A model generated the notes under the pieces. That model saw nothing but the letters and a program-made list of their open reading frames with translations. It ran no database searches and was not told the DNA's origin. 64,000 nucleotides of DNA from an uncultured Chloroflexia bacterium (GTDB taxonomy: Bacteria > Chloroflexota > Limnocylindria > Limnocylindrales > CSP1-4). Where the stretch lies: the NCBI GenBank assembly GCA_963707395.1, contig CAVPPQ010000002.1, positions 195,474 to 259,473 of the forward strand. The letters run 5' to 3'. The position numbers and the translations under genes were made by a program. Numbering within the stretch: position 1 is the stretch's first letter; every line of letters begins with the position of its first letter. Positions 9,853 to 49,358 of this stretch are shown here, in pieces.

Positions 9853-9895
9853 TCGCGAACGACGTTCGAGTGGACGTCACACAGGAGGACAGGGA

Positions 9896-33457: not shown

Positions 33458-33509
33458 TCATCGCGCTTCGATGCCCGGCCCGCGGGGCCGGAGATCAGCC
33501 CGTGAGGGT

Positions 33510-34061
33510 TCAGTCGGCCTCGTTGCCCGGTTGGAGCTCAGTGGCCTCGCGCTTCGGCAGCACCATGCGCTCGCGGTCGATGACGTAGGTCCAGGGCAGG
33601 CCGGAGTTCTTCCAGCCGTTCTTCATGCGCATCCCGTCGAAGACGCTGTCGGGGTCCTTGACCTGGCCGCCCTCCATGCCGTCGACGATGTTCCAGGCGT
33701 TCGTGTAGCCGTTCTTGGCCAGCAGGTTGATGGCCATCGCGCTGCGGCCGCCCGAGCGGCAGGAGACGAGCAGGGTGTCGTCTGGCTTCGCCCACGCCTG
33801 GACCGCGGGCAGGAACCCGGGGTTGAGGTCCCAGTGGAAGCCCTGCTTCTCGGCATCCCATTCGAAGGACTGGAAGGCGAGCGGGATGTTGGTGGCCATC
33901 GGCGCGTGGCCCACGAAGACGTACTCCTCGGGCGTGCGGACGTCGAGGATGCGCACGCCCTCGGGGTCCGCCTGCCAGCGGTCAAACGCCTCCCGGGCGG
34001 TGAGGTACAGGCCCAGGCTGGTCAGCCGCTCCTGGGCGAGGGTGGGGGGGTCCACGGTCAT
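33510..34061 (-). CDS. rhodanese-domain sulfurtransferase
   Basis: Active-site loop CRSGGRS. Confidence 0.8.
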   Translation of the reverse strand: MTVDPPTLAQERLTSLGLYLTAREAFDRWQADPEGVRILDVRTPEEYVFVGHAPMATNIPLAFQSFEWDAEKQGFHWDLNPGFLPAVQAWAKPDDTLLVSCRSGGRSAMAINLLAKNGYTNAWNIVDGMEGGQVKDPDSVFDGMRMKNGWKNSGLPWTYVIDRERMVLPKREATELQPGNEAD

Positions 34062-34130
34062 CGCGATCTCCTGTCCAGTCGTCGGGCCCGCGAAGGCGGA
34101 CCCGACGTGAGAGGTGGTGGTTCGTGACGG

Positions 34131-35309
34131 CTACCCGAGCCGGGTGCCCTCGACCTCGAGCCCGCCCCCTTCTGGCAGCTTGCTCCAGCTACGCCGTGCC
34201 CACTCCTCCTTGAGGACCTCCTCGGCCGCCTTCTCCAGGAACTCGGGCCTCGCCCAGGCAGCCACGTCGAAGTCGTTCTTGATGTAGCCGTGGCTGAACA
34301 TGAAGTCCTTGCCGATCTCGACGCACGCCAGGTTGCGGGCGCTCAGGCTCGGCACCATGTCGACGTCCTTGATGCCCTGGTAGGTGTCCTCGGCGTCGAG
34401 GTAGAACGTCTGGCGGTTGAGGATCTCGCCGGCGGCGCGCTTGTTGCGATTGGCCCAGAGGCCGACCTTGATCATGGCCTTCATGTAGGCGATGACCAGC
34501 TCGGGATGTTCCTCGGCCATGACGTCGGTGCAGGTGATGACAGCCGGCGTGTTGGCGACCTGGATCCGCCAGTCCGAGCGCTTCGACAGGTCCTCGATCA
34601 TGGCGATCTTGCCAGTCGCTTCCTGGAGATGCTGGAAGACCTTGCTCTGAGTGTAGATGGCATCGACGACGCCACCAAGCAGCGCCTTCTCGAGCGGGCG
34701 GAAGGCGTAGTCGTGCTTGTGGTCGCGGCGCATCCACAGCTCCGACGGGTTGTTCATCGTGACCCGGAGCATCTCGGGCTTGTCGTACCAGTCGTCCGGG
34801 TAGGGGAACTCGACGAGCTCGATGTCATCCATCGTCATGTCGTTGAGCATGAGCATGGACTCGATGCCCATGTGCTCCTGGATCCGCCACCAGTCGTTCT
34901 TGATGGTGTTCAGGCTCTTGCTGATGCCGATCTTCCTGCCCTTGAGGTCCTGCATCCGGAAGATCCGGTCGTCAGCGCGGACCGCCATGCAGCCGCCCTC
35001 GTGCACCCACGTCGCCCCGAGCAGCACGGTGCGGCGGAGGTCGGCGTTGACGTGGATCGGCGGGTAAAGCCCCCCGAAGCGGATCAGGTTGTCGAGGTTG
35101 TGGATGTAGTGCGGGTACCAGTTGTTCTCCGGAGCGTGGCGGAAGTAGGCGTACTCGACGCCGATCTTCTTGAACTCCTCACGGCACCACCCCAGCTCTT
35201 GGTCCACGTTGTTGGCGGACACCATGGGGCAGTTGGTGAACCAGACCTCGTTCCAGTCCAGGGGCACGGTCGTGGAGACACGCTTCGGCGCCTGGTTCTC
35301 GTTGGTCAT
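34131..35309 (-). CDS. cytoplasmic SsuA/THI5/DszB-fold protein; DszB (2-hydroxybiphenyl-2-sulfinate desulfinase)-like
   Basis: No signal peptide. ATG after GGAGGAGG. Blocks TNCPM, RFGGLYPPIH and GCMAVRADDRIFRMQDLKGRKIGISKS match my recollection of DszB blocks SNCPV, RFGGEIPPLL and GFFVRDDSPITAAADLAGRRIGVSAS. Confidence 0.55.
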   Translation of the reverse strand: MTNENQAPKRVSTTVPLDWNEVWFTNCPMVSANNVDQELGWCREEFKKIGVEYAYFRHAPENNWYPHYIHNLDNLIRFGGLYPPIHVNADLRRTVLLGATWVHEGGCMAVRADDRIFRMQDLKGRKIGISKSLNTIKNDWWRIQEHMGIESMLMLNDMTMDDIELVEFPYPDDWYDKPEMLRVTMNNPSELWMRRDHKHDYAFRPLEKALLGGVVDAIYTQSKVFQHLQEATGKIAMIEDLSKRSDWRIQVANTPAVITCTDVMAEEHPELVIAYMKAMIKVGLWANRNKRAAGEILNRQTFYLDAEDTYQGIKDVDMVPSLSARNLACVEIGKDFMFSHGYIKNDFDVAAWARPEFLEKAAEEVLKEEWARRSWSKLPEGGGLEVEGTRLG

Positions 35310-35491
35310 GGGGGCTTCCTCCTCCGGTGCTCCGGTCGGGCGAACGCGCGACGGCGCGTGACGGTCACGAACATCGAGCCTCGGCCACGATGACGGCTGC
35401 GAGTTGACCACCATCGACCTCGCGCCGCATCCTCCGCGGCGGTGGAGCCACGACGAGGACGAGGTGCCGCGCTCGGGCTAGTCTGCTGACG

Positions 35492-36556
35492 GTGATGACG
35501 ACGCCCACTCCGATCCCCCTGCTCATCGACTGCGACACCGGCATCGACGATGCCCTGGCGCTGCTCTATGCCGCCGCCTCGCCAGAGGCGGAGATGGTGG
35601 GGGTCAGCTGCGTGGCCGGCAACGTGGAGTTGCCTCACATCGTGCGCAACACGCTGGCCGTGCTGGAGCTGGCCGGTCGGGCGGACATCCCCGTGGCCGC
35701 CGGGGCCGACCGACCCCTGGTCCGGGCGCTTCGCACCGCCGCGGACACGCACGGTCCGACGGGCCTCGGCTACGCGGTCCTCCCGGCGCCCAGCCGGGGT
35801 GTCGTCGCCGAAGGTGCCGCAGGGGTCATCGCGGCGGCCGCCCGCGCCCGTCCCGGTGAGCTGACGTTGGTGACGCTCGGCCCCCTGACCAACGTGGCGC
35901 TCGCGCTGCAGCGCGAGCCTGACCTGCCGCGCCTGCTGCAGCGGATGGTGATGATGGTCGGCTCGTACCGCTCACCGGGCAACACCGCGCCGACCATGGA
36001 GTGGAACGCCGGGCTGGACCCGGAGGCGCTGGCCACGGTGCTCGCAGCCTGGAGCGCGGCGCGGGTCGCCGATCGAGCCATCGGCCGGCCGGTCGCCTTC
36101 GGCCTGGATGTCACGGAGCGGGCCAAGCTGACCCCGGCCCACCTGGAGCGCCTCGCTTCCCGGGCGGGCGGCGGGTCCGCGAACGCCGTGGTGCGCTTCG
36201 TGGCCGACGCCCTGCGCTTCTACTTCGAGTTCCACAGCCGCTACGACGGCTTCTACGGTGCCTTCATCCACGATGCCCTGGTGCTCGCGGCGGCGCTTGA
36301 CCCCGATCTGGCCCGCACGGAGGCGCTGGCCGTGGAGGTGGAGCTCGAGGGTCGCTGGACGACCGGCGAGACCGTGACCGACTGGCGGCGGGCCTGGGGC
36401 CGCGAACCGAACCTCGACGTCGCCGTTGACGCTGACATCGGGACCTTCTTCGAGCATCTCATCGAGCGCGTCGGCGACCTGGCGGCTCAGCGGCCGGGAG
36501 AGCGGCCGGGCGGCAGGGACCACGCTCCAGCGGCGACCCCGGAGGACCACTGCTGA
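35492..36556 (+). CDS. nucleoside hydrolase (inosine-uridine preferring family)
   Basis: N-terminal DCDTGIDDA calcium/ribose-binding aspartate motif. Confidence 0.85.
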   Translation: MMTTPTPIPLLIDCDTGIDDALALLYAAASPEAEMVGVSCVAGNVELPHIVRNTLAVLELAGRADIPVAAGADRPLVRALRTAADTHGPTGLGYAVLPAPSRGVVAEGAAGVIAAAARARPGELTLVTLGPLTNVALALQREPDLPRLLQRMVMMVGSYRSPGNTAPTMEWNAGLDPEALATVLAAWSAARVADRAIGRPVAFGLDVTERAKLTPAHLERLASRAGGGSANAVVRFVADALRFYFEFHSRYDGFYGAFIHDALVLAAALDPDLARTEALAVEVELEGRWTTGETVTDWRRAWGREPNLDVAVDADIGTFFEHLIERVGDLAAQRPGERPGGRDHAPAATPEDHC

Positions 36557-37638
36557 TGCCGCAGACCTGGCTGCGGGTCGGCGTCGGCCTCCTCGCCTTC
36601 CTCGTCGTCGGCCTGGCAGGCGTGCTCGTGCTGCGTCAGATCGACCCGGAGCAGGCGGCTGACTCGTGGTCGCTGGTGACGCTCCTGGCCATCCCGGCCG
36701 GCATCACCGCCTACGCGCTCATCGAGCACCGCCAGACGGGGCGCCTGGACTCGATCACGCGCCAGTTCGACACGCACACGCTGGTGCTGATGCCGGTGGC
36801 CGTGGCCCTCAACATCGTCCTCGGCACGGCCGTGGCGAGCGCACTCAAGATCCCCATCTATCTCGATTCGATCGGCACCATCCTGGTGGCCGTCCTGGCC
36901 GGACCACTGGCCGGCGCCGTGACGGGCTTGCTGGCCAACCTGGTCTGGACGTACCTGGCACCGCCGCCCTTCGCCAGCCCGTACGCGGCGCCCTTCGCCC
37001 TCGTGGCCGTCGTCGTGGGCCTGCTGGCCGGAACGTTCGCGCGCTGGGGCTGGCTGCGACCCCGACCCCACACCTCGGGGCGGCAGCTGGCGATGGGGGC
37101 AGCCGCGGCCATCGGCCTGCTCGCCCTGATGGCCGTGCTGGCACTGGGGGTCTGGCAGGTCGCCTCGCTGGGTAGTGCGCTGGCGCCGTCGAGCGACGAG
37201 CTGGCCTTCACCGCGCTGGGCTGGCTGTCCATGGCGCTCGTGGTGGGCACGGGCATCGGCCTGGTCTGGCTCCTGGTGCGCCAGCGCGACCTGACCGCGG
37301 CCTACATCGTGGTGGCCGGTGCGTTGACCGGCCTCTGTGCGGCCGTGGTGGCTGCCCCGATCGCCGCCAGCCTCTTCGGGGGCGTGACAGGTTCAGGGGC
37401 GGACTTCGTGATCGCCGCCTTCCGCCAGGCTGGCGCGGACCTGCAGCAGGCGGTCCTGGGCCAGAGCCTCGTCTCCGATCCCATCGACAAGGTCGTCACG
37501 TACTTCGTCGTCTACGTCATCCTGGGCACGCTGGCGGTACGCACGAAGGCTCGTTTCCCGCAAGGTGAGTACCTCATCGAACGACCGACCGATGAGGCCA
37601 CGGGTCGGACGGATGGAGCCATCCCCGCTGCGCGCTGA
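36556..37638 (+). CDS. ECF-transporter substrate-specific (S) component-like membrane protein, unusually large (360 aa)
   Basis: Start overlaps the hydrolase stop. Polytopic, with an S-component-like N-terminal core and SDPIDKVVTYFVVYVILG C-terminus. Immediately followed by EcfT and two EcfA genes. Confidence 0.5.
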   Translation: MPQTWLRVGVGLLAFLVVGLAGVLVLRQIDPEQAADSWSLVTLLAIPAGITAYALIEHRQTGRLDSITRQFDTHTLVLMPVAVALNIVLGTAVASALKIPIYLDSIGTILVAVLAGPLAGAVTGLLANLVWTYLAPPPFASPYAAPFALVAVVVGLLAGTFARWGWLRPRPHTSGRQLAMGAAAAIGLLALMAVLALGVWQVASLGSALAPSSDELAFTALGWLSMALVVGTGIGLVWLLVRQRDLTAAYIVVAGALTGLCAAVVAAPIAASLFGGVTGSGADFVIAAFRQAGADLQQAVLGQSLVSDPIDKVVTYFVVYVILGTLAVRTKARFPQGEYLIERPTDEATGRTDGAIPAAR

Positions 37639-38431
37639 GCGGAGCCTGCCGGCCGGCGTCGCCGTTCCTGGCCCGACGGCCTGGCACCGGCTTGACCCGC
37701 TCACCCGTCTGACGCTCTCACTGGTCAGCGTGCTGGCGGTGGTCGTGCTGGGCGGCGTCGTGGGCCCGCTGCTCCTTTGGCTGCTGGCCGTGCTGCTGCC
37801 CGCGTCCCGGGCCCGTGTGCTGCCCGCCGTGTGGCGAGTGTCCGTGCTCCTATCGCTGCCGCTGGCGGCCAGCGCCGCCATCGTCAACGTGTTCTTCACG
37901 CCCGGCGGCGGCACGGTCGTGGCGCAGGTCGGCCCGCTCACCATCACGGCGGAGGGCATCGGGGTCGCCGTGGAGGTCGTCGTGCGCGTCCTGGTGATGT
38001 CCGGCGCGGTGACGCTCTACTACCTCACCACGCGGCCGGCCGAGCTTGTGGCCAGCCTCCAGGCGCACGGCGCGCCGCCACGGCTGACCTTCGTCATCCA
38101 CAGCGCCGTGTCCATGATCCCGCGCCTGGCCGAGCGCGCCTCCGAGGTGACCGCGGCGCAGCGGGCTCGCGGACTGGACAGCGAGGGCAGCCTGTCGCGG
38201 CGCCTGCATGGCGTGATGGCCGTGGCCGGACCCACGGTGAGCGGCGCCATCGCGGAAGCCGAGGCGCGCACGCTGGCGCTGGAGGTCCGCGGCTTCACCC
38301 GTCCCGGGCGCCATACGCTGCTGTGGATCCCGGCGGACAGCGATGGCCAGCGCCTGGCACGCTGGGGCATGGCCGCGGGCGTGGTCCTGCTGGTGGCGCT
38401 CCGGCTGGCCGGCTGGCGGCTACCGTGGTGA
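37613..38431 (+). CDS. energy-coupling factor transporter transmembrane component EcfT/CbiQ
   Basis: HRLDPLTRL (DPRxKL-type) motif and C-terminal ALEVRGF coupling motif. Confidence 0.7.
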   Translation: MEPSPLRAERSLPAGVAVPGPTAWHRLDPLTRLTLSLVSVLAVVVLGGVVGPLLLWLLAVLLPASRARVLPAVWRVSVLLSLPLAASAAIVNVFFTPGGGTVVAQVGPLTITAEGIGVAVEVVVRVLVMSGAVTLYYLTTRPAELVASLQAHGAPPRLTFVIHSAVSMIPRLAERASEVTAAQRARGLDSEGSLSRRLHGVMAVAGPTVSGAIAEAEARTLALEVRGFTRPGRHTLLWIPADSDGQRLARWGMAAGVVLLVALRLAGWRLPW

Positions 38432-38556
38432 TGTCGGCACCACGGGGACAAGTGCCGGGCCGCACCGGGCTCCCCGGGCCCATCGGGCTGGTCGGGCTCT
38501 CAGCCGGTCGGGCTCCCCAAGCTGGTCGCGCTTCGCCGACAGATGCGCGGACGCCG

Positions 38557-39417
38557 GGCCGCGACATGCTGACGCTCAGCGGCGCCACGTACCGCTACCC
38601 GGGCGCGGCGGTGGACAGCCTCCGGGACGTCTCGCTGGTGCTGCCGGAGGGCAGTGTCACGGGCATCGTGGGCACGGCGGAGTCCGGCCTCTCCACGATC
38701 TGCCTGGTGTTGAGCGGGCTGGCGCCGCGCGTGGTCGGTGGCCACCTGCGGGGCTCTCTGCAGGTCGATGGCGAGGACACGGTCGGCTGGCCCATGCACC
38801 GACTCTGCGAGTCCGTCGTGCTGGGCGTCGGACGGCCCGGTGGTCAGCTCTCGATGGTGGCCGAGACCGTCTACGAGGAGGTCGCGTTCGGGCCCGCCAA
38901 CCTGGGGCTGCCGCGCGACGAGGTCATGGCACGCACGGAAGAGGCGCTCGAGCAGGTCGCCATCAGCCACCTGGCGGGCCGCGAGCCGCGCCTGTTGTCC
39001 GGCGGCGAGCATCAGCTGGTGGCGATCGCGGGCCTGCTGGCCATGCGGGCGCCACACCTGGTCCTCGACGAGCCGGTCGCCCACCTTGACGCACACGGCC
39101 GAGAGAAGGTCCTGGCGGCCGTCGCGAGCGCGGCCGCGGCGGGCACGGCCGTGCTCCTCGCCACCCGCTCGAGCGAGGTCGTGCTCCGCAGCTGCGCAAC
39201 GGTGCTGGTGATGGCCGGCGGGCGTGTCGTGGCACAGGGTCCCCCGGTGGAGGTCCTTGCCGACCCGGCGACCTGGGCGCTGGGCATCGCCGAGCCGACC
39301 GGCATGCGCCTCGAGCGGCTGCTGGCAGTCGAGCGCCTGCTGGCGGCGACCAGCATGGCATCGCCTTCGGGAGCCTCATCCGCGCTGCCGCAGCCTCCTC
39401 CCCCGGGTGCGCGCTGA
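38557..39417 (+). CDS. ECF/ABC ATPase component with degenerate Walker A (no P-loop lysine)
   Basis: Walker A position reads GIVGTAESGLST instead of GxxGxGK(S/T). Signature LSGGEHQ and Walker B LVLDEP are present. Confidence 0.65.
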   Translation, partial: GRDMLTLSGATYRYPGAAVDSLRDVSLVLPEGSVTGIVGTAESGLSTICLVLSGLAPRVVGGHLRGSLQVDGEDTVGWPMHRLCESVVLGVGRPGGQLSMVAETVYEEVAFGPANLGLPRDEVMARTEEALEQVAISHLAGREPRLLSGGEHQLVAIAGLLAMRAPHLVLDEPVAHLDAHGREKVLAAVASAAAAGTAVLLATRSSEVVLRSCATVLVMAGGRVVAQGPPVEVLADPATWALGIAEPTGMRLERLLAVERLLAATSMASPSGASSALPQPPPPGAR

Positions 39418-40247
39418 TGGACATCGAGCTGGAGGGCGTCAGCTTCGCCTACCCGTCCGGTCCGACGGTCCTGGACGGCCTCGACTTGGTCTTCCCGGGT
39501 GGCCGGTCGGTGGCCCTGGTGGGCGCCAACGGCAGCGGCAAGACGACCCTGGCTCGGCACCTGAACGGCCTCCTGCGCCCGACCCGTGGGCGCGTGCTGC
39601 TGGACGGCGCCGACATCGCGACCCGCCGCGTGGCCGACCTGGCCGCGAGCGTGGCCGTGGGCTTCCAGGATCCGGACCGGCAGGTGTTCTCGCGCAACGT
39701 GCGGGCCGAGGTCGAGTTCGGGCCGCGGCGGCTGCGCTTCTCCGCGGAGCGTCGCGAGCGGGTCGTCGCCGAGGCGCTCGAGGCGACCGGCCTCGACGAT
39801 GCCGCCCATGTCCACCCTCACGACCTCGGTGAGAGCCGCCGCATGCTCCTCGCGCTGGCCTCGCTGCTGGCCATGGAGACGGCCGTGCTCGTGCTCGACG
39901 AGCCGACGGTCGGCCTCGACCCTGCCGGGCGGGCACGGGTGGCCGGGGTCATGGCCAGGCTGCTGGCCGCAGCGAGGAGCGTCATCGTCATCAGCCACGA
40001 CATGCGCCTGGTGGCGGAGACCTGCGAGCGCGTCGTCGTGTTCGAGCACGGCCGCATCGCTCTCGATGGCAGTCCAGCCGACGTCTTCGCAGAGGCCTCG
40101 TGGCCGCTCCTGCACCGCGCCGGGCTGGAGCCGCCGGAGGCCGCACTCCTCGGCTCGCGACTGGGTCTCGGCTCCACCCCCACGGAGTCGGCCCTTCTGG
40201 CGGCCGCTCGGCGTCCGCACCCAGATCGCGACTGCACAGTCACTTGA
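39417..40247 (+). CDS. ECF/ABC ATPase component (canonical)
   Basis: Walker A GANGSGKTT and Walker B VLVLDEPT. ATGA overlap with the upstream ATPase. Confidence 0.8.
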   Translation: MDIELEGVSFAYPSGPTVLDGLDLVFPGGRSVALVGANGSGKTTLARHLNGLLRPTRGRVLLDGADIATRRVADLAASVAVGFQDPDRQVFSRNVRAEVEFGPRRLRFSAERRERVVAEALEATGLDDAAHVHPHDLGESRRMLLALASLLAMETAVLVLDEPTVGLDPAGRARVAGVMARLLAAARSVIVISHDMRLVAETCERVVVFEHGRIALDGSPADVFAEASWPLLHRAGLEPPEAALLGSRLGLGSTPTESALLAAARRPHPDRDCTVT

Positions 40248-40350
40248 CACGGCTTGGCGGATGGCAGGTACGATGACTCCTCGAGCGAGTGGAGGCCGGG
40301 ACATCGCCCGCCGGGTGCGCCTGCCTCCCGGCGCTGGAGGGTTCCTATCG

Positions 40351-41373
40351 ATGGTCAGGCGTATCTCCGTGTGCGCGGCCGCAGGGCTGCTGACACTCAC
40401 CGTGACCGTGGGCGGTGCCGTGGCCGTCGCCCAGGACGAGCCCCTCAAGGTCTTCGGCGCCTATGCGACGGAGATCGAGGAGCCCTGGGACGGCGTCATC
40501 CACGCAGCGCTGCAGGCCGAGGCTGACGCCGGTCGCATCGAGTACACCTTCGCCGACGGCCTGGGCTACTCGGGTGACATGGAGTTGACCCTGCGCGAGG
40601 TCTCCGAGATCGACGTGCCGGACATCATCTTCGGCGACGCCTTCGGCAACGAGGAGGCCGTGCGTGCCGTGGCCGCCGACTATCCCGACATCGCCTACGT
40701 CTTCGGCTCCGGCGGCGGTCCCGCCGACCCCAACTTCAGTGTCTTCGACAACTGGATCCACGAGCCCGCCTACCTGGCCGGCATGCTCGCCGGCGGCCTG
40801 ACCGAGACGGGCATCATCGGTGTCGTGGGCGGCGTGCCCGTTCCTGAGGTCAACCGCATCACCAACGCCTTCGTCGCTGGCGCCCGTGACGTCAACCCGG
40901 AGGTGGAGGCCAAGGTCAGCTTCATCAACAGCTGGTTCGACCCGGCCGCGGCCAAGGAAGCCGCGCTGGCCCAGATCGACGCCGGCGCGGACGTCCTCTA
41001 CGCGGAGCGCTTCGGCGTCATCGAGGCCGCCGACGAGAACGACCTCATCGCCGTGGGCAACATGAGCGACCAGTCCGCGCTGGCACCGGACAACGTCGTC
41101 ACCAGCGTGACCTGGAACATGACCCCGACCGCCGAGTACGTCATCGAGCAGGTCGCCGGCGGGACCTACACCGCCCAGGACCTGAAGGACTTCAGCATGG
41201 TCGCCAAGGGCGGTGCCGCACTGGCGCCCATCAACACGGCGCTCGTGCGCGAGGTGCCCGCGGATCTCGTCGAACAGGTCAAGGCCCGGGAGGCGGAGAT
41301 CGTCTCCGGCGTCTTCCGGGTGGACATCAACGAGTCGACCCCGCCCGGCTCGGACATCCCGCCGGCCGAATAG
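40351..41373 (+). CDS. BMP-family ABC transporter substrate-binding lipoprotein (PnrA-like nucleoside receptor)
   Basis: Signal peptide MVRRISVCAAAGLLTLTV, then a BMP/Med-like sequence. Confidence 0.8.
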   Translation: MVRRISVCAAAGLLTLTVTVGGAVAVAQDEPLKVFGAYATEIEEPWDGVIHAALQAEADAGRIEYTFADGLGYSGDMELTLREVSEIDVPDIIFGDAFGNEEAVRAVAADYPDIAYVFGSGGGPADPNFSVFDNWIHEPAYLAGMLAGGLTETGIIGVVGGVPVPEVNRITNAFVAGARDVNPEVEAKVSFINSWFDPAAAKEAALAQIDAGADVLYAERFGVIEAADENDLIAVGNMSDQSALAPDNVVTSVTWNMTPTAEYVIEQVAGGTYTAQDLKDFSMVAKGGAALAPINTALVREVPADLVEQVKAREAEIVSGVFRVDINESTPPGSDIPPAE

Positions 41374-41393
41374 CCGCCCTCCCTCTCACCAGC

Positions 41394-42914
41394 ATGATCG
41401 GCGACGGCGGCCAGGGCGACCTGGCCGCCGATCTGCGAGGCATCAGCAAGCGCTTCGGCGACCTCATCGCCAACGACGAGGTGGACCTCTCGCTGGCGCG
41501 AGGCGAGGTGCATGCCCTGCTGGGCGAGAACGGCGCCGGCAAGACGACGCTGATGCGCATCCTCTACGGGCTCACCCGGATGGACAGCGGCAGCATCCTG
41601 ATCGGCGATCGACCAGTCAGCATCGGCTCGCCGCGGGACGCCATCGCGGCCGGGGTGGGCATGGTCACCCAGCACTTCTCGCTGGTGCAGCCCATGACCG
41701 TGACGGAGAACCTCGTGCTGGGGCGCGCGCGAGGCGCGCGGCTGGACCTGGCCGCCGGGCGCCGCTCCGTGGAGGCCGCCGCGGAGCGCTTCGGCATCGC
41801 GGTCCGGCCGGAGGCCATCGTCTCGGAGCTCTCGGTCGGCGAGCAGCAGCGCGTCGAGATCGTCAAGGCCCTGGCGCGTGACTGTCGCGTGCTCATCCTC
41901 GACGAGCCCACGGCCGTCCTCGTGCCCCACGAGGTGGAGGCCCTCTTCGAGACCCTGCGGCGCCTCGTTGGCGAGGGCCTTTCGGTGGTCTTCATCAGCC
42001 ACAAGCTGGGCGAGGTGCGCGCCATCAGCGACCGGGTCAGCGTCATGCGGCGCGGGCGCATGGTCGGCACCGCCCCCGGATCGACCGACGAGCGCGAGCT
42101 GGCACGGATGATGGTGGGCAGGCCGACCTTCGGTGTCGGGCAGCAGGAGACCATCTGGGGGGGCGGGGAGCCTCGACTCAAGGTCCGCGAGGTCTCGGCG
42201 CTGGGCGGTCACGGGCGGCCGGCCCTGCACGGCGTCTCACTGGAGGTGCACGCGGGTGAGATCCTCGGCGTCGCCGGTGTCTCAGGCAATGGCCAGACCG
42301 AGCTGGCCGAGGTCCTCTCGGGCATGCGCCCCGTGACCAGCGGCTCGGTCCTGGTGCACGAGCAAGAGCTGGCGGGGGCGGAACCGGCGGTCGTCATGGC
42401 CGCCGGCGTGGGACGCATCCCGGAGGACCGGCACGCCAGCCTGGTGCTGGATCTGCCCGTCTCGTTGAACCTCATCCTCGAGCACATCGACGATTTCACG
42501 CGCGGCGGCCGCCTCGACCGTCGCGCTGTGGATGTCCACGCTCGAGAGCTCATCGAGCGCTACCGCATCAAGGCCCAGCCCGATGACCGCGTGGCCACCC
42601 TGTCCGGCGGCAACATCCAGAAGGTGCTCCTGGCACGGGTGCTGTCACGCGACCCGCACGTCATCGTCGTCTCACAGCCCACGCGCGGCCTGGACGTGGG
42701 CGCCAGCGAGTACGTGCGCGAGGAGCTCCTGGCGCACCGTCGCGACGGGGCGGCCATCCTGCTCATCTCCGAGGACCTCGACGAGCTGCTCTCCCTGTCC
42801 GACCGCATCGTGGTGCTCTACGAAGGTCGGGTCGTGGGCCGCATGGCGGCCTCGCAGGCCGAGCCGGAGCAGCTGGGCATGCTCATGGCCGGGCGCGGCC
42901 AGGCCGCGGCATGA
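41394..42914 (+). CDS. ABC transporter ATP-binding protein with two tandem nucleotide-binding domains (nucleoside/sugar importer type)
   Basis: Walker A GENGAGKTT in NBD1. Degenerate second NBD typical of NupA/RnsA-type proteins. 506 aa. Confidence 0.85.
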   Translation: MIGDGGQGDLAADLRGISKRFGDLIANDEVDLSLARGEVHALLGENGAGKTTLMRILYGLTRMDSGSILIGDRPVSIGSPRDAIAAGVGMVTQHFSLVQPMTVTENLVLGRARGARLDLAAGRRSVEAAAERFGIAVRPEAIVSELSVGEQQRVEIVKALARDCRVLILDEPTAVLVPHEVEALFETLRRLVGEGLSVVFISHKLGEVRAISDRVSVMRRGRMVGTAPGSTDERELARMMVGRPTFGVGQQETIWGGGEPRLKVREVSALGGHGRPALHGVSLEVHAGEILGVAGVSGNGQTELAEVLSGMRPVTSGSVLVHEQELAGAEPAVVMAAGVGRIPEDRHASLVLDLPVSLNLILEHIDDFTRGGRLDRRAVDVHARELIERYRIKAQPDDRVATLSGGNIQKVLLARVLSRDPHVIVVSQPTRGLDVGASEYVREELLAHRRDGAAILLISEDLDELLSLSDRIVVLYEGRVVGRMAASQAEPEQLGMLMAGRGQAAA

Positions 42915-44058
42915 CGCTGGAGGCCCGTCGGGCCGCAGAGACACGCTTCGGACGCACGGGGACCATCATCCTGGGGGCCCTGGTGGCCGTCCTGGCGGTG
43001 ACCGGGGGCGCCTTCATCATCGCCGGCGCCAACCCGGTCGATGCCACCTTCGCCTACTTCGTCGCGCCGCTGACCCGCGAGTTCACGCTCTGGGAGGTCC
43101 TCAATGTCTCGACGCCGCTGCTCTTCGCGGGCGCGGCCGTGGCCATCGCCTTCCGGAGCGGCTACTGGAACATCGGTGTCGAAGGACAGCTGCTGATGGG
43201 TGCCGTGGCCGCGGCCGGCATCGGCCAGGTCGTGCACGGCTGGCCATCCATCGTGGTGCTGCCGCTCATGATCGTGGCCGGCGCACTGGCCGGCGCGGCA
43301 TGGGCCCTTGTGCCAGCCCTCCTGCGCGTGCGCCTGGGCATCGACGAGGTCGTCACCACGCTGCTCCTGAACCCCGTGGCGCTGCTGGTCGTGGAGGCCC
43401 TCCTCCACGGGCCATGGACGGACCCGGAGACCGGCTTCCCGGAATCGCCGCGCATCGCCGAAGCCGCCGAGTTCCCCAAGCTGGCGGCCTTCCTGCCCTT
43501 CCTGGGCAAGTCGCGGCTGCACATCGGGTTCATCATCGCCATCGTCATCATCGTCGCCGCCTGGTGGGTGCTGAGCCGCACTTCGACGGGCCTGCGCGTG
43601 CGTGCCGTGGGCCTCTCGCCACACGGGGCGCGCTTCGCCGGGATCAAGGTCGAGCGGACGCTCCTGCGGGTGGCGCTCATCAGCGGCGCGGTGGCCGGCG
43701 TGGCCGGCGTGAGCGAGGTGGCCGGCATCCAGTTCCGCCTCACAGCGGGCATCTCGCCGGGCTTCGGCTACACGGGCATCGTGGTGGCCATGCTGGGCGG
43801 CCTGACCATGCCCGGCGTCCTCCTGGCCGGCCTGCTGCTGGGCGACCTCGCCGTGGGCGCCTCGTCTGCGGTGCGCAGCCTGCAGATCCTTCACAGCTGG
43901 GGGCCGTGGTCGAGGGCACCCTGTTGCTGGTCGTCATCGGGGCCCTGGCGCTGCGCCGGGCCAGGTCGCGACAGGAGGATGAGCGCCCCGCCGACGAGGG
44001 TGAGCCGCCGCCGGCCGAGCCCAAGTCCATGGCGTCCGCCGAGGGGCCGCCGGGATGA
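42911..44058 (+). pseudogene. ABC transporter permease (BMP-system, NupB-like) with single-base frameshift near 43883-43888 (pseudogene or homopolymer sequencing error)
   Basis: Frame A encodes the permease up to …AVRSLQI, then degenerates into Cys/Trp nonsense. Frame B (ORF 42532..44058) carries the proper end …PSQLGAVVEGTLLLVVIGALALRR and an ATGA overlap with the next permease. One extra C in cagatCCttca restores it. Confidence 0.6.
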
Positions 44059-44969
44059 ACTTCCTGGCTGACATCCTGGCGGCCACGTTCCGCAACGCCA
44101 CGCCGCTCGTCTACGGCACGGTCGGGGAGACCTACGCGGAGCGGTCCGGCGTCCTCAACCTGGGCATCGAGGGCACGATGTACGCGGGAGCCTTCTTCGG
44201 CTTCGCCGTGGCCTTCCAGACTGGGAACCCCCTGGTCGGTCTCGTCGCCGCGATCGTCGTGGGCATGGTCGCAGGCGGCCTCATGGGGCTGCTCACGGTG
44301 ACGCTGGGAGCCAACCAGCACGTCAGCGGCCTGGGTCTGACCATCGGCCTCATCGGCATCTCCGAGTTCGCCAACCGGCTCATCTTCTCGGGCGACACGC
44401 TGGCCCGCATCGAGCCCATGCCGCTCTGGGATCCGCTGGCCGGCCTGGGTGACATCGGCACGATAGCCAACCAGTACGGCCTGACCTACCTGGCCTTCCT
44501 GGTCGTGGTGCCCGTGGCCTGGTGGGTGCTGAGCCGAACGCCGCTGGGCCTGTCGATCCGCGCCGTGGGCGAGAACCCCGAGGCGGCCGACGTGGCCGGC
44601 ATCAGCGTCTTCCGCATCCGCTATGTGGCGCTCATGATCGGTGGCGCGCTGATGGCGGTGGGCGGCGCATTCATCACGCTCTCGATGCTGGGCACCTTCA
44701 CCCTGGACATCATCGCCGGGCGCGGTTGGGTGTGCATCGCGCTCGTCATCTTCGGGCGCTGGCGCATCTTCCGCGGCGTGCTCGGCGCACTCGTCTTCGC
44801 GGCGGTCTTCTCGCTGGGCCTGCGCTTGCGCATCACGCCCGGCTTCGAGGGCGTGCCCAACGAGCTCATGCTGGCCCTGCCGTACGTGGTGGTCATCGCG
44901 GCGCTCGCCCTGTCGGGCCGCAACGTGCCATATCCCGGCGCCTACCTGAAGGCATACCGTCGTACCTAG
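44055..44969 (+). CDS. ABC transporter permease (BMP-system, NupC-like)
   Basis: 304 aa, polytopic, branched-chain/ribose-permease-like. Confidence 0.8.
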   Translation: MNFLADILAATFRNATPLVYGTVGETYAERSGVLNLGIEGTMYAGAFFGFAVAFQTGNPLVGLVAAIVVGMVAGGLMGLLTVTLGANQHVSGLGLTIGLIGISEFANRLIFSGDTLARIEPMPLWDPLAGLGDIGTIANQYGLTYLAFLVVVPVAWWVLSRTPLGLSIRAVGENPEAADVAGISVFRIRYVALMIGGALMAVGGAFITLSMLGTFTLDIIAGRGWVCIALVIFGRWRIFRGVLGALVFAAVFSLGLRLRITPGFEGVPNELMLALPYVVVIAALALSGRNVPYPGAYLKAYRRT

Positions 44970-45024
44970 GCAGGAGCCGGGCAGCGCCGCAGGGCGCCCA
45001 CGGCAACCATCAGAAGGAGGGCAC

Positions 45025-45471
45025 ATGGACGACCAGGGATTCATGAAGATCGCCATCGAGGAGGCCGCCCGCGGGCTCTCGGAAGGCGGGGTGCCCGTCG
45101 GCGCGGCTCTCGTGGCCGACGGCAAGGTCCTGGGCTCAGGCCACAACCGGCGCGTCCAGCAGGGCAGCGCCATCCGCCACGGCGAGACGGACTGCCTGGA
45201 GAACATCGGGCGGCTGCACGCCTCGGTCTATCGGCGGGCCACGATGTACACGACGCTGTCACCCTGCGACATGTGCACGGGCGCCATCCTGCTGTACGGG
45301 ATCCCGCGCGTCGTCGTGGGCGAGAACGAGACGTTCATGGGTGGCGAAGGTCACCTGCGCTCGCGGGGCGTGGAGGTGGTGAACCTCGATTCGGCCGACT
45401 GCAAGGCGCTCATGGCCGAGTTCATCGCTCGCTACCCGGATATCTGGAATGAGGACATCGGGCAGGAGTGA
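45025..45471 (+). CDS. cytosine deaminase, Fcy1-like (CDA-fold zinc deaminase)
   Basis: HGE…SPCDMCTGAI zinc motifs. Overall very similar to my recollection of yeast Fcy1, including the YTTLSPCDMCTGAI and GIPR(V/C)VVGEN blocks. Confidence 0.8.
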   Translation: MDDQGFMKIAIEEAARGLSEGGVPVGAALVADGKVLGSGHNRRVQQGSAIRHGETDCLENIGRLHASVYRRATMYTTLSPCDMCTGAILLYGIPRVVVGENETFMGGEGHLRSRGVEVVNLDSADCKALMAEFIARYPDIWNEDIGQE

Positions 45472-45531: not shown

Positions 45532-46023
45532 CTACCCCTCCTCGGTTCGGTCCAGCGCGGCCTGGATCTGCGCCTCGGCCTCCGCGTCCAGGGTGGTCTG
45601 GTAGACCTTGCCCTTGTACGGCTCCAGGGCGCCGACCACGGCGGACGCATTGCCGGTGCCGAGCACGAAGAGGGCGGACGTGCCCGCGGTCAGGTCGCGG
45701 GTGACATCCTCGACGAGCTTCTTGTCGACGTTGTGGTGCAACGAGCGGCCGATGACCCCGCCGATGGCAGCTCCGATGGCGAGACCGGCCACGGGGAAGA
45801 AGACCAGTCCAAGCAGGAGGCCCAGCGCACCGCCGACCACGGCTCCCCCGGCCGTGGTGCGGTCGAAGCCGTGGTGGACGTGGACCTTGCCATCGGCGTC
45901 CTTCTCGACCACCGCCACGTCGTCGATCTGCGCGCCGTGGGCGCTCTGCAGCGACTTGAGCCGTTCACAGGCCTGCCCGGCGCTCTCGCGGTCCTCGAAC
46001 GTGATGACCAGCAGTTGACTCAT
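45532..46023 (-). CDS. DUF1269 family membrane protein (soluble N-domain plus glycine-zipper TM segment)
   Basis: TAGGAVVGGALGLLLGLVFFPVAGLAIGAAIGGVIG GxxxG-rich segment. Confidence 0.7.
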   Translation of the reverse strand: MSQLLVITFEDRESAGQACERLKSLQSAHGAQIDDVAVVEKDADGKVHVHHGFDRTTAGGAVVGGALGLLLGLVFFPVAGLAIGAAIGGVIGRSLHHNVDKKLVEDVTRDLTAGTSALFVLGTGNASAVVGALEPYKGKVYQTTLDAEAEAQIQAALDRTEEG

Positions 46024-46146
46024 GGAGGCGCTCCTTTCTGACGCAGGCCTCGAGTGTATCGCCGCACGCCCTCCTGCGGCTCACGACCGCGCCTTCCGGA
46101 GCGACGTTCGACCGAACACTTGCCGTTCGCCACGCGGGCGGTGACG

Positions 46147-46548
46147 TCACGTCCGTTCCAGGACGACCTCGTTGACGGCGCCCTCGACGATCGTCCAGGC
46201 GCGCACCTCGGGCGGCTCGCCCAGGAAGGAGCAGAGCACGTAGAGCGCGTCGGGGTAGGCCGCCAGGCCGACGTCGGTGGCCGAGGGCCGTGGCGGCGAG
46301 GCGACGTGGGAGTGGACGATGGCCCAGATCACCTCGTCCGCGTCGTCGATCTCGAGCATGACGCGCAGCTGCTCGTCGGGGTCCATGAGATAGCGATAGG
46401 GAGAGGCAGCCGCGTTGCGCATGCCCACGAAACGCGTCGGGACGCCGCCGTCCTCGGGGGTCCGGTCGGAGACGAGGAGTCCGCAGCCCTCGTTGGGCAG
46501 GGCGTCCCGCAGCCAGTCGACGAGCTCGTCGCGGATGCGGGGCGACAT
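46147..46548 (-). CDS. mec: JAMM/MPN+ metalloprotease, Mec+-like (CysO C-terminal processing and cysteine release)
   Basis: JAMM motif E…HSHVASPPRPSATD; Mec-like N-terminus (RIRDELVDWLRDALPNEGCG). Start set at the internal ATG; the ORF could extend upstream to 46746. Confidence 0.7.
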   Translation of the reverse strand: MSPRIRDELVDWLRDALPNEGCGLLVSDRTPEDGGVPTRFVGMRNAAASPYRYLMDPDEQLRVMLEIDDADEVIWAIVHSHVASPPRPSATDVGLAAYPDALYVLCSFLGEPPEVRAWTIVEGAVNEVVLERT

Positions 46549-46866
46549 GGCGGCCGAGGCCGGCGTCCACGGCGGGCCGGCGCCGCGGCCGACGGCACCC
46601 CAGTCGGCCAGGTGGCGTTCCTCCGCGACCGCGCCCAGGTCGGCCGCCCGTTGCCAGGCCGCGACTCCGGGGACGGAGGCATCGCCCGTGACCGCCGGCT
46701 CGTGAGCCTCGGAGCGGATCGGAGACGCGCCGGCGCCGGAGGCCACGCCCGTGCCAGGACCCTGGCCGGTGCCGAGGATCCTCGCGGGTGCCGGGATCCT
46801 CGCCGGTGCTGGGGTCCTCGCGGGTGCTGGGGTCCTCGCCAGAGGTCGGGCCCCGGTCGCTGTCGC

Positions 46867-47886
46867 TCACCACAGGTTCAGGCTGTCCACGACATCCTCG
46901 TCGGCGTCGAGATCACGCGTCCAGATGTCCTCGCTGAGGTACTTCCAGCCACCGTCGGCGAGGAGCGCGACGATCGTGCCGCGCTCCATCTCGCGAGCCA
47001 GCTGCTTGGCCGCCACCATGACCGCGCCACAGGAGACGCCGGCGAAGATGCCCTCGCGGTCGGTGAGCTCGCGCAGCGCCTCGATGGCCTGCGCGTTGGA
47101 AACGAGGAGCCGGCCGTCCAGCACGGAGGCATCGAAGATCTCCGGGATGAAGCCCTCCTCCAGCGAGCGCAGGCCCTGGACGCGCTCGCCGGGCAGCGGC
47201 TCCGCGGCATAGATGCGCACGTCGGGGTTGTGCCGCCGCAACCGCCGGCCCACGCCCATGAGCGTGCCGCCGGTGCCCAAACCAGCCACGAAGGCGTCCA
47301 CCTCCGGACAGTCGGCGATGATCTCCTCCGCGGTGGTCTCCTCGTGCGCCCGCGGATTGGCTTCGTTGCCGTACTGGTAGGGCATCACGAAGCGCGCGTC
47401 CCTGGCCACGAGGTGCTTGGCCAGCGCGATCGCCCCATTTGAGCCCAGGTGGCCCGGCGAGTCGATGACCTCCGCGCCGAAGAGCGCCAGCAACTGGCGC
47501 CGTTCCATGGTCACGTTGTCCGGCACCACGACGGCCACGCGATAGCCCTTGCGGCGCGCGATCATGGCCAGCCCGATGCCGGTATTGCCGCTGGTGGGCT
47601 CGATGATGATGGAGTCCGGCCGCAGGCGGCCGGCGCGCTCCAGGTCCTCGATGAGGTACTTGGCGACGCGGTCCTTGACCGACCCCGTCGGGTTCATGAA
47701 CTCCAGCTTGGCGTAGAGCCGCACGTTGGGATTGGGGCAGACGTTGGGGACCTCCACCAGCGGCGTGAAGCCGATGGCGTCCACGATGGACGGGAAGCGG
47801 CCCCCGTGTCGCGCGTTGCCGCCGTGGGCATGCGGCCGCAGAGCGTCGACCTCGACCCCGGACGGCCGCTCCGACGTCGCCGTCAC
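46867..47886 (-). CDS. cysM: cysteine synthase, CysM-type (CysO-thiocarboxylate-dependent O-phosphoserine sulfhydrylase-like)
   Basis: PLP lysine region NPTGSVKDR, and GTGGT glycine loop. GTG start. Confidence 0.85.
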   Translation of the reverse strand: MTATSERPSGVEVDALRPHAHGGNARHGGRFPSIVDAIGFTPLVEVPNVCPNPNVRLYAKLEFMNPTGSVKDRVAKYLIEDLERAGRLRPDSIIIEPTSGNTGIGLAMIARRKGYRVAVVVPDNVTMERRQLLALFGAEVIDSPGHLGSNGAIALAKHLVARDARFVMPYQYGNEANPRAHEETTAEEIIADCPEVDAFVAGLGTGGTLMGVGRRLRRHNPDVRIYAAEPLPGERVQGLRSLEEGFIPEIFDASVLDGRLLVSNAQAIEALRELTDREGIFAGVSCGAVMVAAKQLAREMERGTIVALLADGGWKYLSEDIWTRDLDADEDVVDSLNLW

Positions 47887-47898
47887 GAGCGTGGCGCC

Positions 47899-48174
47899 CT
47901 ACCGGCCTCCGGCCATGGCCGGCAGAAGGATGACCTCGTCGGCAGCGGCGACCGGGGTCTCCAGGCCCTGCTCGTAGCGCACGTCGCGGCCGTTGACGTA
48001 GACGTTGACGAAGCGGTTCAGCTCGCCGTCGGCGGAGAAGACCTGCTCGCGGAGGCCGGGGTGCAGCTCCAGCAGCGACGTGAGGGCCTCACCGACGGTC
48101 GCGCCACTCACCTCGACGCGCTTCTGGTTGCCGGCCTGTGCGCGCAGCACGGGCGGGATGCGGACCGCGGTCAT
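47899..48174 (-). CDS. cysO: sulfur-carrier protein CysO (MoaD/ThiS family) with one residue (Arg) after the Gly-Gly
   Basis: 91 aa. The C-terminal two-thirds (RFVNVYVNGRDVRY…VILLPAMAGG-R) closely match my recollection of the M. tuberculosis CysO C-terminus (RFVNIYVNDEDVRF…SVTILPAVAGG). ATGA overlap with the upstream E1 gene. Confidence 0.8.
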   Translation of the reverse strand: MTAVRIPPVLRAQAGNQKRVEVSGATVGEALTSLLELHPGLREQVFSADGELNRFVNVYVNGRDVRYEQGLETPVAAADEVILLPAMAGGR

Positions 48175-49358
48175 GCACTCGCCTCCATCGTGGTCGGAAG
48201 GTTCAGGGGGAAGGTGAAGACGCCATCGGCGGCCTCGGGCGCCGGCAGCTCGCCATCGCCGCAGGCGGGGCAATGCGGGTCGCGCCGCAGCTGCAGCTCG
48301 CTGAAGGAGCCGTCCAGGGCGTCGTAGATGAGCAGGCGCCCGGCCAGCGAGTCGCCGATGGCGAGGAGGACCTTGATGCCTTCCGTGGCCTGCAGGAGGC
48401 CCATGACGCCGGGCACGACACCCAGGACGCCGGCCACCGAACAGCCCGGCGCCAGCTCGGGGGGCGGCGGGGTCGGGTAGAGGCAGCGATAGCAGGGCCC
48501 CTCGTGAGGCGTGAAGACGGTCAGCTGGCCCTCGAAGCGGAAGACGGAGGCGTGCACGACAGGGATGCCGGCGCGCACGGCAGCATCGTTGAGCGTGTAG
48601 CGCGTCTCGAAGGTATCGGTGCCATCGAAGATGAGGTCGTACCCGGCGATGAGACGCTCCACGTTGTCCGGTCCGAGCATCTCCTCGAAGGTCTCGACGC
48701 GAACGTCCGGGTTGAGCTCCCGGATGGTCTGCGCGGCCGACTCCGTCTTCTTCATGCCCACCCGGTCGGCGCGGTGGACGACCTGGCGCTGCAGGTTGGA
48801 GACGTCCACGACGTCGAAGTCGACGATACCGATGGTGCCCACGCCGGCTGCGGCCAGGTAGAGCATGGCCGGAGAGCCCAGGCCGCCGGCGCCGATGAAG
48901 AGCACCCGTGAGCCGAGGAGCTTGGCCTGGCCGGCCGCGCCGACCTCCGGGATGAGCAGGTGGCGCGAGTAGCGCTGCTTCTGCTCGCTGGTCAGCAGCA
49001 CGGGTTGCGTGAAGGGGCGACCCTCCGACTTCCAGGCCTGGAAGCCGCCGCTCATGGAGGCCACATCGGTGTAGCCCATGGCCTGCAGCGTCTGGGCCGC
49101 GAAGAGCGAGCGGATGCCGCCCGCGCAGTAGAGGATGACCGGCACCTCGCGGTCCGGGGCGAGGCCCTCGATCTCCTGTTCGATGAACGATTTCGAGACG
49201 TGATGGGCGCCGCCGATGTGCCCTTGCTCCCACTCGCTGACCTCGCGGACGTCGACCAGGACGGCGCCTTCCCGCGTGGCGCGCTCCGTCTGTGCCGTGG
49301 TCACCTCGCGAACGGCGGCGCGGGCATCGCGCAGCAGGTCGCGGTACGACTTGCTCAT
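48171..49358 (-). CDS. moeZ: MoeZ/MoeB-like E1 sulfurtransferase with inverted domain order (N-terminal rhodanese, C-terminal ThiF/E1 domain with CxxC…CxxC)
   Basis: Residues about 1-125 are a rhodanese domain (active-site CAGGIRS). E1 Rossmann motif LFIGAGGLGS follows. Zinc cysteines CYRC…CPAC. Start set at MSKSYRDLL. Confidence 0.8.
   Translation of the reverse strand: MSKSYRDLLRDARAAVREVTTAQTERATREGAVLVDVREVSEWEQGHIGGAHHVSKSFIEQEIEGLAPDREVPVILYCAGGIRSLFAAQTLQAMGYTDVASMSGGFQAWKSEGRPFTQPVLLTSEQKQRYSRHLLIPEVGAAGQAKLLGSRVLFIGAGGLGSPAMLYLAAAGVGTIGIVDFDVVDVSNLQRQVVHRADRVGMKKTESAAQTIRELNPDVRVETFEEMLGPDNVERLIAGYDLIFDGTDTFETRYTLNDAAVRAGIPVVHASVFRFEGQLTVFTPHEGPCYRCLYPTPPPPELAPGCSVAGVLGVVPGVMGLLQATEGIKVLLAIGDSLAGRLLIYDALDGSFSELQLRRDPHCPACGDGELPAPEAADGVFTFPLNLPTTMEASA

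Follow-up and report, generated by a model that had tools for sequence, protein, structure and literature searches.

The window analysed here, a stretch of 64,000 nucleotides of contig CAVPPQ010000002.1 from an uncultured soil Chloroflexia bacterium (G+C about 70%, its closest relatives being metagenome-assembled Chloroflexota of the Candidatus Limnocylindria type and not actinobacteria), contains ten co-directional plus-strand genes between positions 35492 and 45471, as seen from the list of open reading frames (ORFs) and from family matches. The part at 35492-40247 is read here, with a probability of about 65%, as one operon that encodes a nucleoside hydrolase together with its dedicated energy-coupling factor (ECF) importer, organised in the style of group I from the components S, T, A1 and A2. 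In ECF transporters, a small six-helix S component is thought to topple against EcfT, powered by two ATPases. The operon of the window departs from this picture in two respects which are not described in the literature searched: the S component is enlarged from six to ten helices, and the ATPase pair has a single consensus ATP site throughout the subfamily, the other site having decayed stepwise. The features of the operon are the following.

35492-36556, plus strand: IU-family (RihA-like) nucleoside hydrolase, first gene of the operon (PF01156, 305 bits)
36556-37638, plus strand: ECF S component, 360 amino acids (aa), ten predicted helices (profile matches and AF2 model)
36562-36738, plus strand: N-terminal extension of S, two extra helices, aa 3-26 and 31-61 (AF2 model)
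36772-37044, plus strand: S core helices SM1-SM3, aa 73-163 (split profile match and model)
37078-37278, plus strand: two-helix insertion between SM3 and SM4, aa 175-204 and 215-241 (model)
37294-37554, plus strand: S core helices SM4-SM6, aa 247-333, with the conserved motifs FGGVTGSG.D and SDP.DK (profile and model)
37565-38431, plus strand: EcfT, the T component (PF02361, 98 bits), with its start at GTG 37565, ATG 37592 or ATG 37613
38431-39417, plus strand: EcfA-type ATPase A1, degenerate half-site, with its start at ATG 38431 (overlapping the T stop) or ATG 38566
38671-38697, plus strand: Walker A of A1, GTAESGLST, in which Leu (CTC, 38689-38691) replaces the P-loop Lys
38992-39018, plus strand: signature of A1, LLSGGEHQL, intact (alignment)
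39154-39174, plus strand: H-loop region of A1, LLATRSS, with Arg in place of the switch His, aligning to sTHd of CbiO
39417-40247, plus strand: EcfA'-type ATPase A2, catalytic half-site (TIGR04521, 200 bits)
39522-39548, plus strand: Walker A of A2, GANGSGKTT, canonical
39822-39848, plus strand: degenerate signature of A2, DLGESRRML for LSGGQ, aligning to dLSGGQmrr of EcfA2

The gene order of this unit was compared across 80 species-level GTDB loci, 70 of which have at least 1.2 kb of sequence upstream of the S gene. The order hydrolase-S-T-A1-A2 is nearly invariant across the 80 loci, and the hydrolase lies inside the locus in 69 of the 70 informative Limnocylindria loci, being found directly upstream of S in 58 (a count that includes locus L073, whose hydrolase gene is broken by frame shifts), 2.5 kb upstream in 7, downstream in 4 and nowhere in 1. 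The same order, with a short or mid-length S component, is present in Limnochordales, in another Chloroflexota lineage and in Dormibacterota, and it recurs on further contigs outside Limnocylindria. In the window the hydrolase stop codon overlaps the S start (TGATG), and the same one-base overlap joins A1 to A2, as well as T to A1 if A1 starts at 38431.

Some variants of the hydrolase-S arrangement were also seen. In L008, L010, L011, L012, L014, L017 and L020, an unrelated minus-strand pair of genes spanning about 2.5 kb (7408-9871 in L012) lies between the hydrolase and S, encoding a 443-aa MBOAT/AlgI-like protein and a 374-aa protein of no assigned family. In L073, the closest GTDB relative of the window (S 94% identical), the hydrolase gene at 8934-10009 is split over three reading frames, which suggests either frequent indel errors in these long-read metagenome-assembled genomes or a decaying gene. 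The Limnochordales locus L081 (1-2448 and 4897-9112) carries two paralogous ECF modules of the window S family, one beside a hydrolase gene and the other beside an MFS gene, both with an A2-type ATPase of degenerate signature.

No catalytic feature of group I nucleoside hydrolases is missing from the hydrolase, which retains the DxDxxxDD motif, the equivalent of His82, ExN and the catalytic HD. It is most similar to RihA and UriH, yet falls far under their equivalog cutoffs; its best NCBIfam match is RihA, at 212 bits against a cutoff of 433, and its best match in the PDB is E. coli RihA, at 176 bits.

The transporter encoded at 35492-40247 is a member of the ECF class by its S fold, its T component and its ATPases. 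The T component carries two Arg-Gly coupling motifs, QRARGL and LEVRGF (read from the translation), and is accompanied by two ATPases of the CbiO/EcfA clade, whose top PDB matches are CbiO, EcfA1 and EcfA2, in a five-gene unit that has no binding-protein gene in most loci. A metal transporter of the CbiMNQO/NikMNQO kind was considered and rejected: neither CbiM nor CbiN was found, the T component scores 75 bits on TIGR02454 (CbiQ) against a cutoff of 112, and the ATPases stay under the cutoff of the cbiO model TIGR01166. The extra helices of S have no sequence relation to the CbiN of CbiMN/NikMN systems, in which nothing corresponds to an insertion between SM3 and SM4, and the metal-binding N-terminus of those systems is absent from the window S. 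The sequence-only reading of this DNA, which had called T, A1 and A2 ECF-type and the 360-aa protein an ECF S component of about twice the usual size, is borne out on all these points, and the ten genes do lie in the order that it gave.

The evidence for the S component comes from profile matches and from a structure model. PF12822 (ECF_trnsprt) is its sole Pfam match, sub-threshold at 23 bits against a cutoff of 30.7, and the best-scoring family is NCBIfam NF045596, the CD3073 family of putative ECF transporter S components (E 2.4e-32, 112 bits), whose curated cutoff of 180 bits is not reached by the non-contiguous match. This match is split, aa 76-163 aligning to profile positions 1-84 and aa 238-329 to positions 80-171, and no profile matches the segment between the halves, where the SM3/SM4 insertion lies; no match to a non-ECF family was found. 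An AF2 model built with 127 homologues (49-85% identity) reached a pLDDT of 84 and a pTM of 0.84, and the insertion itself scores mostly 83-96, with lower values (66-69) confined to the loop between its helices at about aa 201-220; a first model, from 18 sequences, had been discarded at a pLDDT of 48. As modelled, S is a six-helix S fold to which two N-terminal helices and a two-helix hairpin between SM3 and SM4 are added. Its 360-aa length is a property of the family and not a start-codon artefact, since nearly all of the 240 closest database homologues measure 350-370 aa and Y53, E57, Q60 and T61 of the N-terminal extension are invariant across the 127 homologues. Comparison by hhalign of the N-terminal extension, the insertion and the two core halves gave probabilities of at most 1.2% throughout, and the enlargement is therefore not an internal duplication.

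An exhaustive hidden Markov model (HMM) search of 1.84 billion cluster representatives (clusters at 50% identity, threshold E <= 1e-3) returned 1,661 relatives of S, which align to the window S at 32-50% identity and form a graded architecture of about 200, 260-300 and 350-370 aa. Those of about 200 aa have six helices, align with the CD3073 model over its whole length and show 39-46% identity to the core of the window S; those of 260-300 aa have the SM3/SM4 insertion only, and those of 350-370 aa have both additions, so that the N-terminal extension is missing from the two shorter classes and the insertion from the shortest. The short relatives score 69-133 bits on NF045596, also under its cutoff of 180, and the motifs LK.P.YLDSIGT, GP.AG..TG, FGGVTGSG.D and SDP.DK are common to the window S and the relatives of 195-212 aa. 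The window S thus resembles the CD3073 family in best score and shared motifs and differs from it by the insertion of about 75 aa and the extension of about 70 aa, each of two helices; the family has no assigned substrate, and a literature search for CD3073 gave nothing relevant. Relatives of the S core also occur as fusion proteins (P0309, P0321, P0331, P0356 of 935 aa, P0357 and P0360), those with EcfT being 460-490 aa long. One S-core relative is fused to a PAS-HisKA-HATPase-REC sensor kinase, which recalls the relation of the S fold to 5TMR sensor kinases described earlier (PMC11109136).

The two ATPases are asymmetric in their motifs. The best NCBIfam matches of A1 are the ECF ATPases TIGR04520 and TIGR04521 (147 and 143 bits, below cutoff) and its best PDB match is the CbiO of Rhodobacter capsulatus (5x3x, 120 bits), in which GpnGaGKST stands opposite GTAESGLST; the alignment to CbiO leaves the Walker B of A1, LVLDEP, intact. 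A2 is best matched in the PDB by EcfA2 of Lactobacillus delbrueckii (5d3m_B, 151 bits), and its Walker A, Walker B (LVLDEP), Q-loop and H-loop (ISHD) are all canonical. Both of these solved proteins have canonical motifs at the positions that are degenerate in A2 and A1. An ATP site of the ATP-binding cassette (ABC) kind is formed by the P-loop side of one nucleotide-binding domain (NBD) and the signature of the other NBD. All the defects, GTAESGLST and ATRSS in A1 and LGESR in A2, hence lie in one of the two composite sites, and the other is canonical in all its motifs.

The order in which this site was lost can be followed across lineages. In essentially all of 71 Limnocylindria loci the A2 signature departs from the consensus (DLGxSRRKL), as it does in 9 of the 9 A2-type domains sampled across Limnochordales, Dormibacterota and other Chloroflexota, where VSESARK, LDYTSKK, LPVAQRR, LDYGMRK, LGVSTRK, LPQGMRR, LGYSRRK and LSAAERR are found. 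In the sampled relatives outside Limnocylindria, A1 keeps the P-loop Lys, and its H-loop His is kept in all but one; at the switch His position, most Limnocylindria have Gln (EQK or EQR) and the relatives from other phyla have EH. The Lys-to-Leu change is common to seven species (the window, L073, L002, L003, L001, L005 and L008), the other 60-plus loci having GK[ST], and in L005 the Walker B Glu of A1 is additionally replaced by Ala; the signature LSGGE/Q of A1 is intact in all seven, and its Walker B in all except L005. These states show an ordered decay of one site, from the A2 signature through the A1 switch His and the P-loop Lys to the Walker B Glu in L005. A sequencing error was rejected as the source of the Lys-to-Leu change, which needs two substitutions (AAR to CTC) and occurs in seven species. 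Judging from the alignments, the change is real and fixed in the seven-species subclade, where it would have arisen late, once the site was no longer catalytic and constraint on it had relaxed. The sequence-only reading was right that the P-loop lysine is missing from GTAESGLST and that the pair is asymmetric, and it erred in taking that substitution as the cause of the asymmetry, of which it is the latest step. As to the start of A1, translation from ATG 38431 would give it a 45-residue N-terminal extension rich in Pro, Gly and Arg (38431-38565); in at least one close relative, L003, T is separated from the conserved part of A1 by about as much sequence, which is not the case in more distant loci such as L030.

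The concept of one degenerate and one consensus ATP site is established for heterodimeric ABC proteins (PMC3971661), and TM287/288, TAP1/2 and CFTR share with the window pair a reciprocal pattern in which one NBD deviates from the consensus at Walker A and H-loop and its partner at the signature. They are exporters or channels, however, whereas the window system is a predicted importer whose decay can be traced stepwise across lineages; in the literature searched, degenerate ATP sites were discussed for exporters and not for any ECF-type importer. Compared with canonical group II ECF systems (EcfAA'T with FolT, ThiT, RibU or PanT), the window encodes all four subunits and an enzyme together, its S is twice the normal size, its A2 has no LSGGQ and its A1 has neither the P-loop Lys nor the switch His.

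The sequence-only reading held the substrate of S to be unpredictable. The partners of S narrow it, however: the hydrolase beside it, and an alternative tRNA-guanine transglycosylase (TGT) partner in relatives, make a ribonucleoside very probable. P0290, a relative of the insertion type that is 38% identical to the window S, is encoded directly downstream of a TGT. In a metagenome scan of its subfamily, 46 loci had enough upstream sequence; a TGT lies directly upstream of S in 12 of them, an IU-type hydrolase in 23 and neither in 11, and the loci with a TGT are spread over at least three lineages in the tree of S. One of these enzymes inserts a base and the other cleaves a nucleoside, and their alternation beside one S family therefore points to the salvage of queuosine precursors. 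A queuosine-family compound (queuosine imported and then hydrolysed to queuine) is accordingly the leading single candidate, at odds that we put slightly short of even, while the canonical pyrimidine ribonucleosides are a possible but rather doubtful substrate.

The only experimentally validated pair of a hydrolase and an ECF S component in the literature searched is QueK with QueT/QrtT of Clostridioides difficile, which serves queuosine (PMC11130926, PMC11477304, PMC11570991, PMC12632869), the imported nucleoside being hydrolysed to the base inside the cell (PMC11130926, PMC11477304, PMC11570991). The window resembles this system in that the gene of an IU-family hydrolase lies directly beside that of an ECF S component and in that relatives of its S alternate between a hydrolase and a TGT partner. 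The QrtTUVW prediction reportedly goes back to Rodionov et al. in 2009. The differences are several. The window has neither a preQ1 riboswitch nor queL, its S has ten helices, one ATP site is degenerate and the organism belongs to Chloroflexota; moreover, T, A and A' are part of the window operon, whereas in C. difficile T and A are encoded elsewhere (PMC11570991). The topology and HMM check which the sequence-only reading had proposed for the 360-aa protein yielded a match to CD3073-family S components and none to the QueT family (PF06177) at E <= 0.01; QrtT has been assigned to PF12822 (PMC11130926). The window system cannot be filed under QueK/QueT.

The missing QueT match weighs against an importer of queuosine-type nucleosides, and so do several further points. 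Rfam gave no family at gathering score across the window, neither a preQ1 nor another riboswitch, and in the segment upstream of the hydrolase (35300-35600) it gave nothing relevant even at E <= 10. No TGT is present in the window or in the 80 Limnocylindria loci, and identity between the window S and its TGT-linked relatives is only about 38%. The hydrolase is closest to the pyrimidine-specific RihA and UriH and shares with RihA the base-pocket helix FxxE[FY]H, while a cytosine deaminase encoded 4.8 kb downstream fits a yeast-like route from cytidine through cytosine to uracil. Two more points bear on the reading of the operon as a whole. The loops that flank the hairpin of S (window 37057-37293, aa 163-176 and 242-246) are rich in Arg and nearly invariant, with WLRPRP (W166-L-R-P-R170) and RQRD (R244-D245), which conflicts with the positive-inside rule if the hairpin enters from outside. 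Transport by the ECF module and the activity of the hydrolase are both predictions from sequence.

If the operon works as a hydrolase-coupled importer, S would bind a ribonucleoside outside the cell and deliver it through the EcfT scaffold, and the cytoplasmic hydrolase would then split the nucleoside into base and ribose. Transport would be powered by a single catalytic ATP site, made of the Walker A, Walker B and H-loop of A2 and the LSGGE signature of A1, the other composite site (P-loop and H-loop of A1, signature of A2) being non-catalytic. A1 would serve as a structural partner and signature donor, since its site has also lost the P-loop lysine in the seven-species subclade.

The best-surviving alternative, though an unlikely one, is that the whole block of 10 kb is one pyrimidine salvage island in which both transporters import cytidine, uridine or cytosine, the hydrolase turning cytidine into cytosine and the deaminase turning cytosine into uracil, as in the Urh1/Fcy1 route of yeast. 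The genes at stake beyond the operon are the following.

40351-41373, plus strand: Bmp-family substrate-binding protein, first gene of the second module (PF02608, 133 bits)
41394-42914, plus strand: double-NBD ABC ATPase of the BMP system (two ABC_tran domains)
42911-44058, plus strand: permease 1 (BPD_transp_2), with a -1 frameshift, restored product 382 aa
44055-44969, plus strand: permease 2 (BPD_transp_2; family matches)
45025-45471, plus strand: Fcy1-type cytosine deaminase, 148 aa (172 bits to yeast cytosine deaminase)

Besides the pyrimidine-specific best matches of the hydrolase, a single island would agree with a deaminase that is a full-length homologue of Fcy1, with the placement of all ten genes on one strand at short gaps, and with a Limnochordales relative in which a GntR/UTRA regulator lies directly upstream of the hydrolase-ECF module, with a 5'-nucleotidase on its downstream side at a distance of two genes, about 1.3 kb. 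The wider comparison nevertheless argues that the ECF operon is an old and self-contained unit, found in many different neighbourhoods. The BMP-ABC-deaminase block adjoins it in only 16 of the 80 loci, all of them closer relatives (17 with L006, whose contig ends in the Bmp gene), and elsewhere the operon stands amid unrelated housekeeping genes, such as those for ProRS, an IMPase-like protein and acyl-CoA carboxylase, in a comparison of flanks whose clustering was swamped by high-GC shadow ORFs. In a Chloroflexota relative with a 207-aa S, the hydrolase (64% identical), S, T and the two ATPases are followed directly by JAB-CNNM-PALP-ThiS, while in the window the BMP block and a DUF1269 gene stand between the ECF operon and JAB-PALP-ThiS. 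Because the short-S relative has these genes directly after the hydrolase-ECF module, the simplest reading of the BMP-deaminase block is an insertion, and it looks like one made beside the ECF operon in one Limnocylindria subclade. A pyrimidine substrate also leaves the recurrent TGT partner of the related S subfamily unexplained, and the ECF systems characterised to date are known as micronutrient carriers. The single island of the sequence-only reading is therefore not upheld.

The second module, at 40351-45471, is probably a separate one that combines a BMP-type importer, probably for a nucleobase, with a cytosine deaminase. It has the parts of the BMP/PnrA-type importers, namely a Bmp protein, a fused double ATPase and two BPD_transp_2 permeases, one of them frameshifted. 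The Bmp start ATG at 40351 is preceded by a GGAGGG ribosome-binding site, and the product has a signal peptide, MVRRISVCAAAGLLTLTVTVGGAVAVA followed by QDE, and no canonical lipobox, so that the label of lipoprotein given to it in the sequence-only reading falls away. Its closest solved relatives are AtzT (6pi5, 122 bits) and the Brucella BMP protein (3s99, 118 bits), both of which were reportedly crystallised with purine bases and not with pyrimidine nucleosides, a further point against a pyrimidine island. These ligands of the relatives, together with the adjacent deaminase, suggest a module for nucleobase import and deamination. The deaminase, which had already been recognised as Fcy1-like, matches yeast cytosine deaminase over its full length (E 7e-50, aa 3-147 to 11-158), carries the zinc motifs HGE and SPCDMC and comes after the BMP system in every locus that has it, a feature by which the module differs from the known BMP/PnrA-type importers, AtzT and the Brucella BMP protein, as it does by the missing lipobox. 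A vitamin B6 reading was rejected: on the NCBIfam models of the putative B6 ABC transporter, NF047927-30, the scores and cutoffs are 85/400, 462/670, 171/400 and 167/465, the double-NBD ATPase having NF047930 as its best NCBIfam match (462 bits against 670).

The genes of the importer are tightly joined, with ATGA overlaps between the double-NBD ATPase and permease 1 and between permeases 1 and 2. The frame of permease 1 breaks at about 43887-43888 (43880-43895), where the window has CAGAT-CC against CAGATCCC in L003, L008 and L073, and restoring one C lets it read through to the ATGA overlap at 44055-44058. Either permease 1 is a real pseudogene or the assembly is in error at a short C run; that run and the frame breaks in the hydrolase of the closest relative fit an assembly or sequencing error.

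A second alternative, which we consider very unlikely, is that the ECF system imports a micronutrient other than a nucleoside (a vitamin, a cofactor precursor or a metal) and that the adjacent hydrolase is functionally unrelated. It could appeal to the second-best, weak matches of S, which are to the folate S family (TIGR04518, E 8.6e-7; FolT 5d0y, E 0.19, the only hit of a profile search of PDB sequences with S), and to the relatives that have neither a hydrolase nor a TGT beside S (5-6 of 11 sampled outside Limnocylindria, besides the 11 of 46 loci in the P0290 subfamily). The TIGR04518 score of 29 bits is, however, far under the cutoff of 60, CbiM, CbiN and NikM features are missing and T is under the CbiQ equivalog cutoff, while the adjacency of hydrolase and S, with its 1-nt overlap, is conserved across the class and recurs in three other phyla. 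The weakest alternative, pseudogenisation that has left neither transporter working, could point to the lost Walker A Lys and altered H-loop of A1, to the frameshifted permease and to the Walker B change in L005, but it is barely credible given that A1 is a full-length ORF whose signature is intact in the seven species and whose Walker B is intact in all but L005, that a two-nucleotide Lys-to-Leu change is no read error, that the degenerate site is reciprocal (P-loop of one NBD, signature of the other) beside a wholly canonical second site, and that the permease breaks at a short C run in a group whose closest member has a hydrolase with multiple frame breaks.

The genes that neighbour the block within the window lie on the minus strand. 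Divergent from the hydrolase operon, the stretch 31514-35414 encodes a sulfate permease of the SulP type that includes a STAS domain (31514-33457), then a rhodanese (33510-34061) and, at 34131-35414, a protein of 427 aa whose NMT1/THI5-like match is weak; the gene of this last protein is kept upstream in L012 and L073 only. On the other side, 45532-49484 encodes a DUF1269 protein (45532-46023), a Prok-JAB/Mec-like protein (46147-46746) and a PALP/CysM-like protein (46867-47886), with ThiS/CysO-like and MoeZ-like ORFs beyond, and looks like a cluster for cysteine synthesis of the CysO type, which uses a sulfur carrier. In L090 the JAB-PALP-ThiS genes come immediately after the hydrolase-ECF module.

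For annotation, 35492-45471 is best treated as two modules and not as one island. A more far-reaching reading, distinctly unlikely in our judgement, is that the operon represents an ECF family that is absent from the literature searched and spans phyla (Chloroflexota, Dormibacterota and Bacillota), a missing transporter of queuosine or queuine with a single catalytic site and, in Limnocylindria, a ten-helix S; if so, such an S may be too large to topple, and a modified mechanism of translocation would be implied. The single-site ATPase pair and the four extra, well-conserved helices of S offer test cases for how much ATP is used per cycle and how large a mass is able to topple. Many bacteria that are predicted to salvage queuosine precursors lack a known transporter (PMC11130926), and an S family that alternates between TGT and hydrolase partners is a concrete candidate for such a transporter, testable in existing E. 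coli reporter strains.

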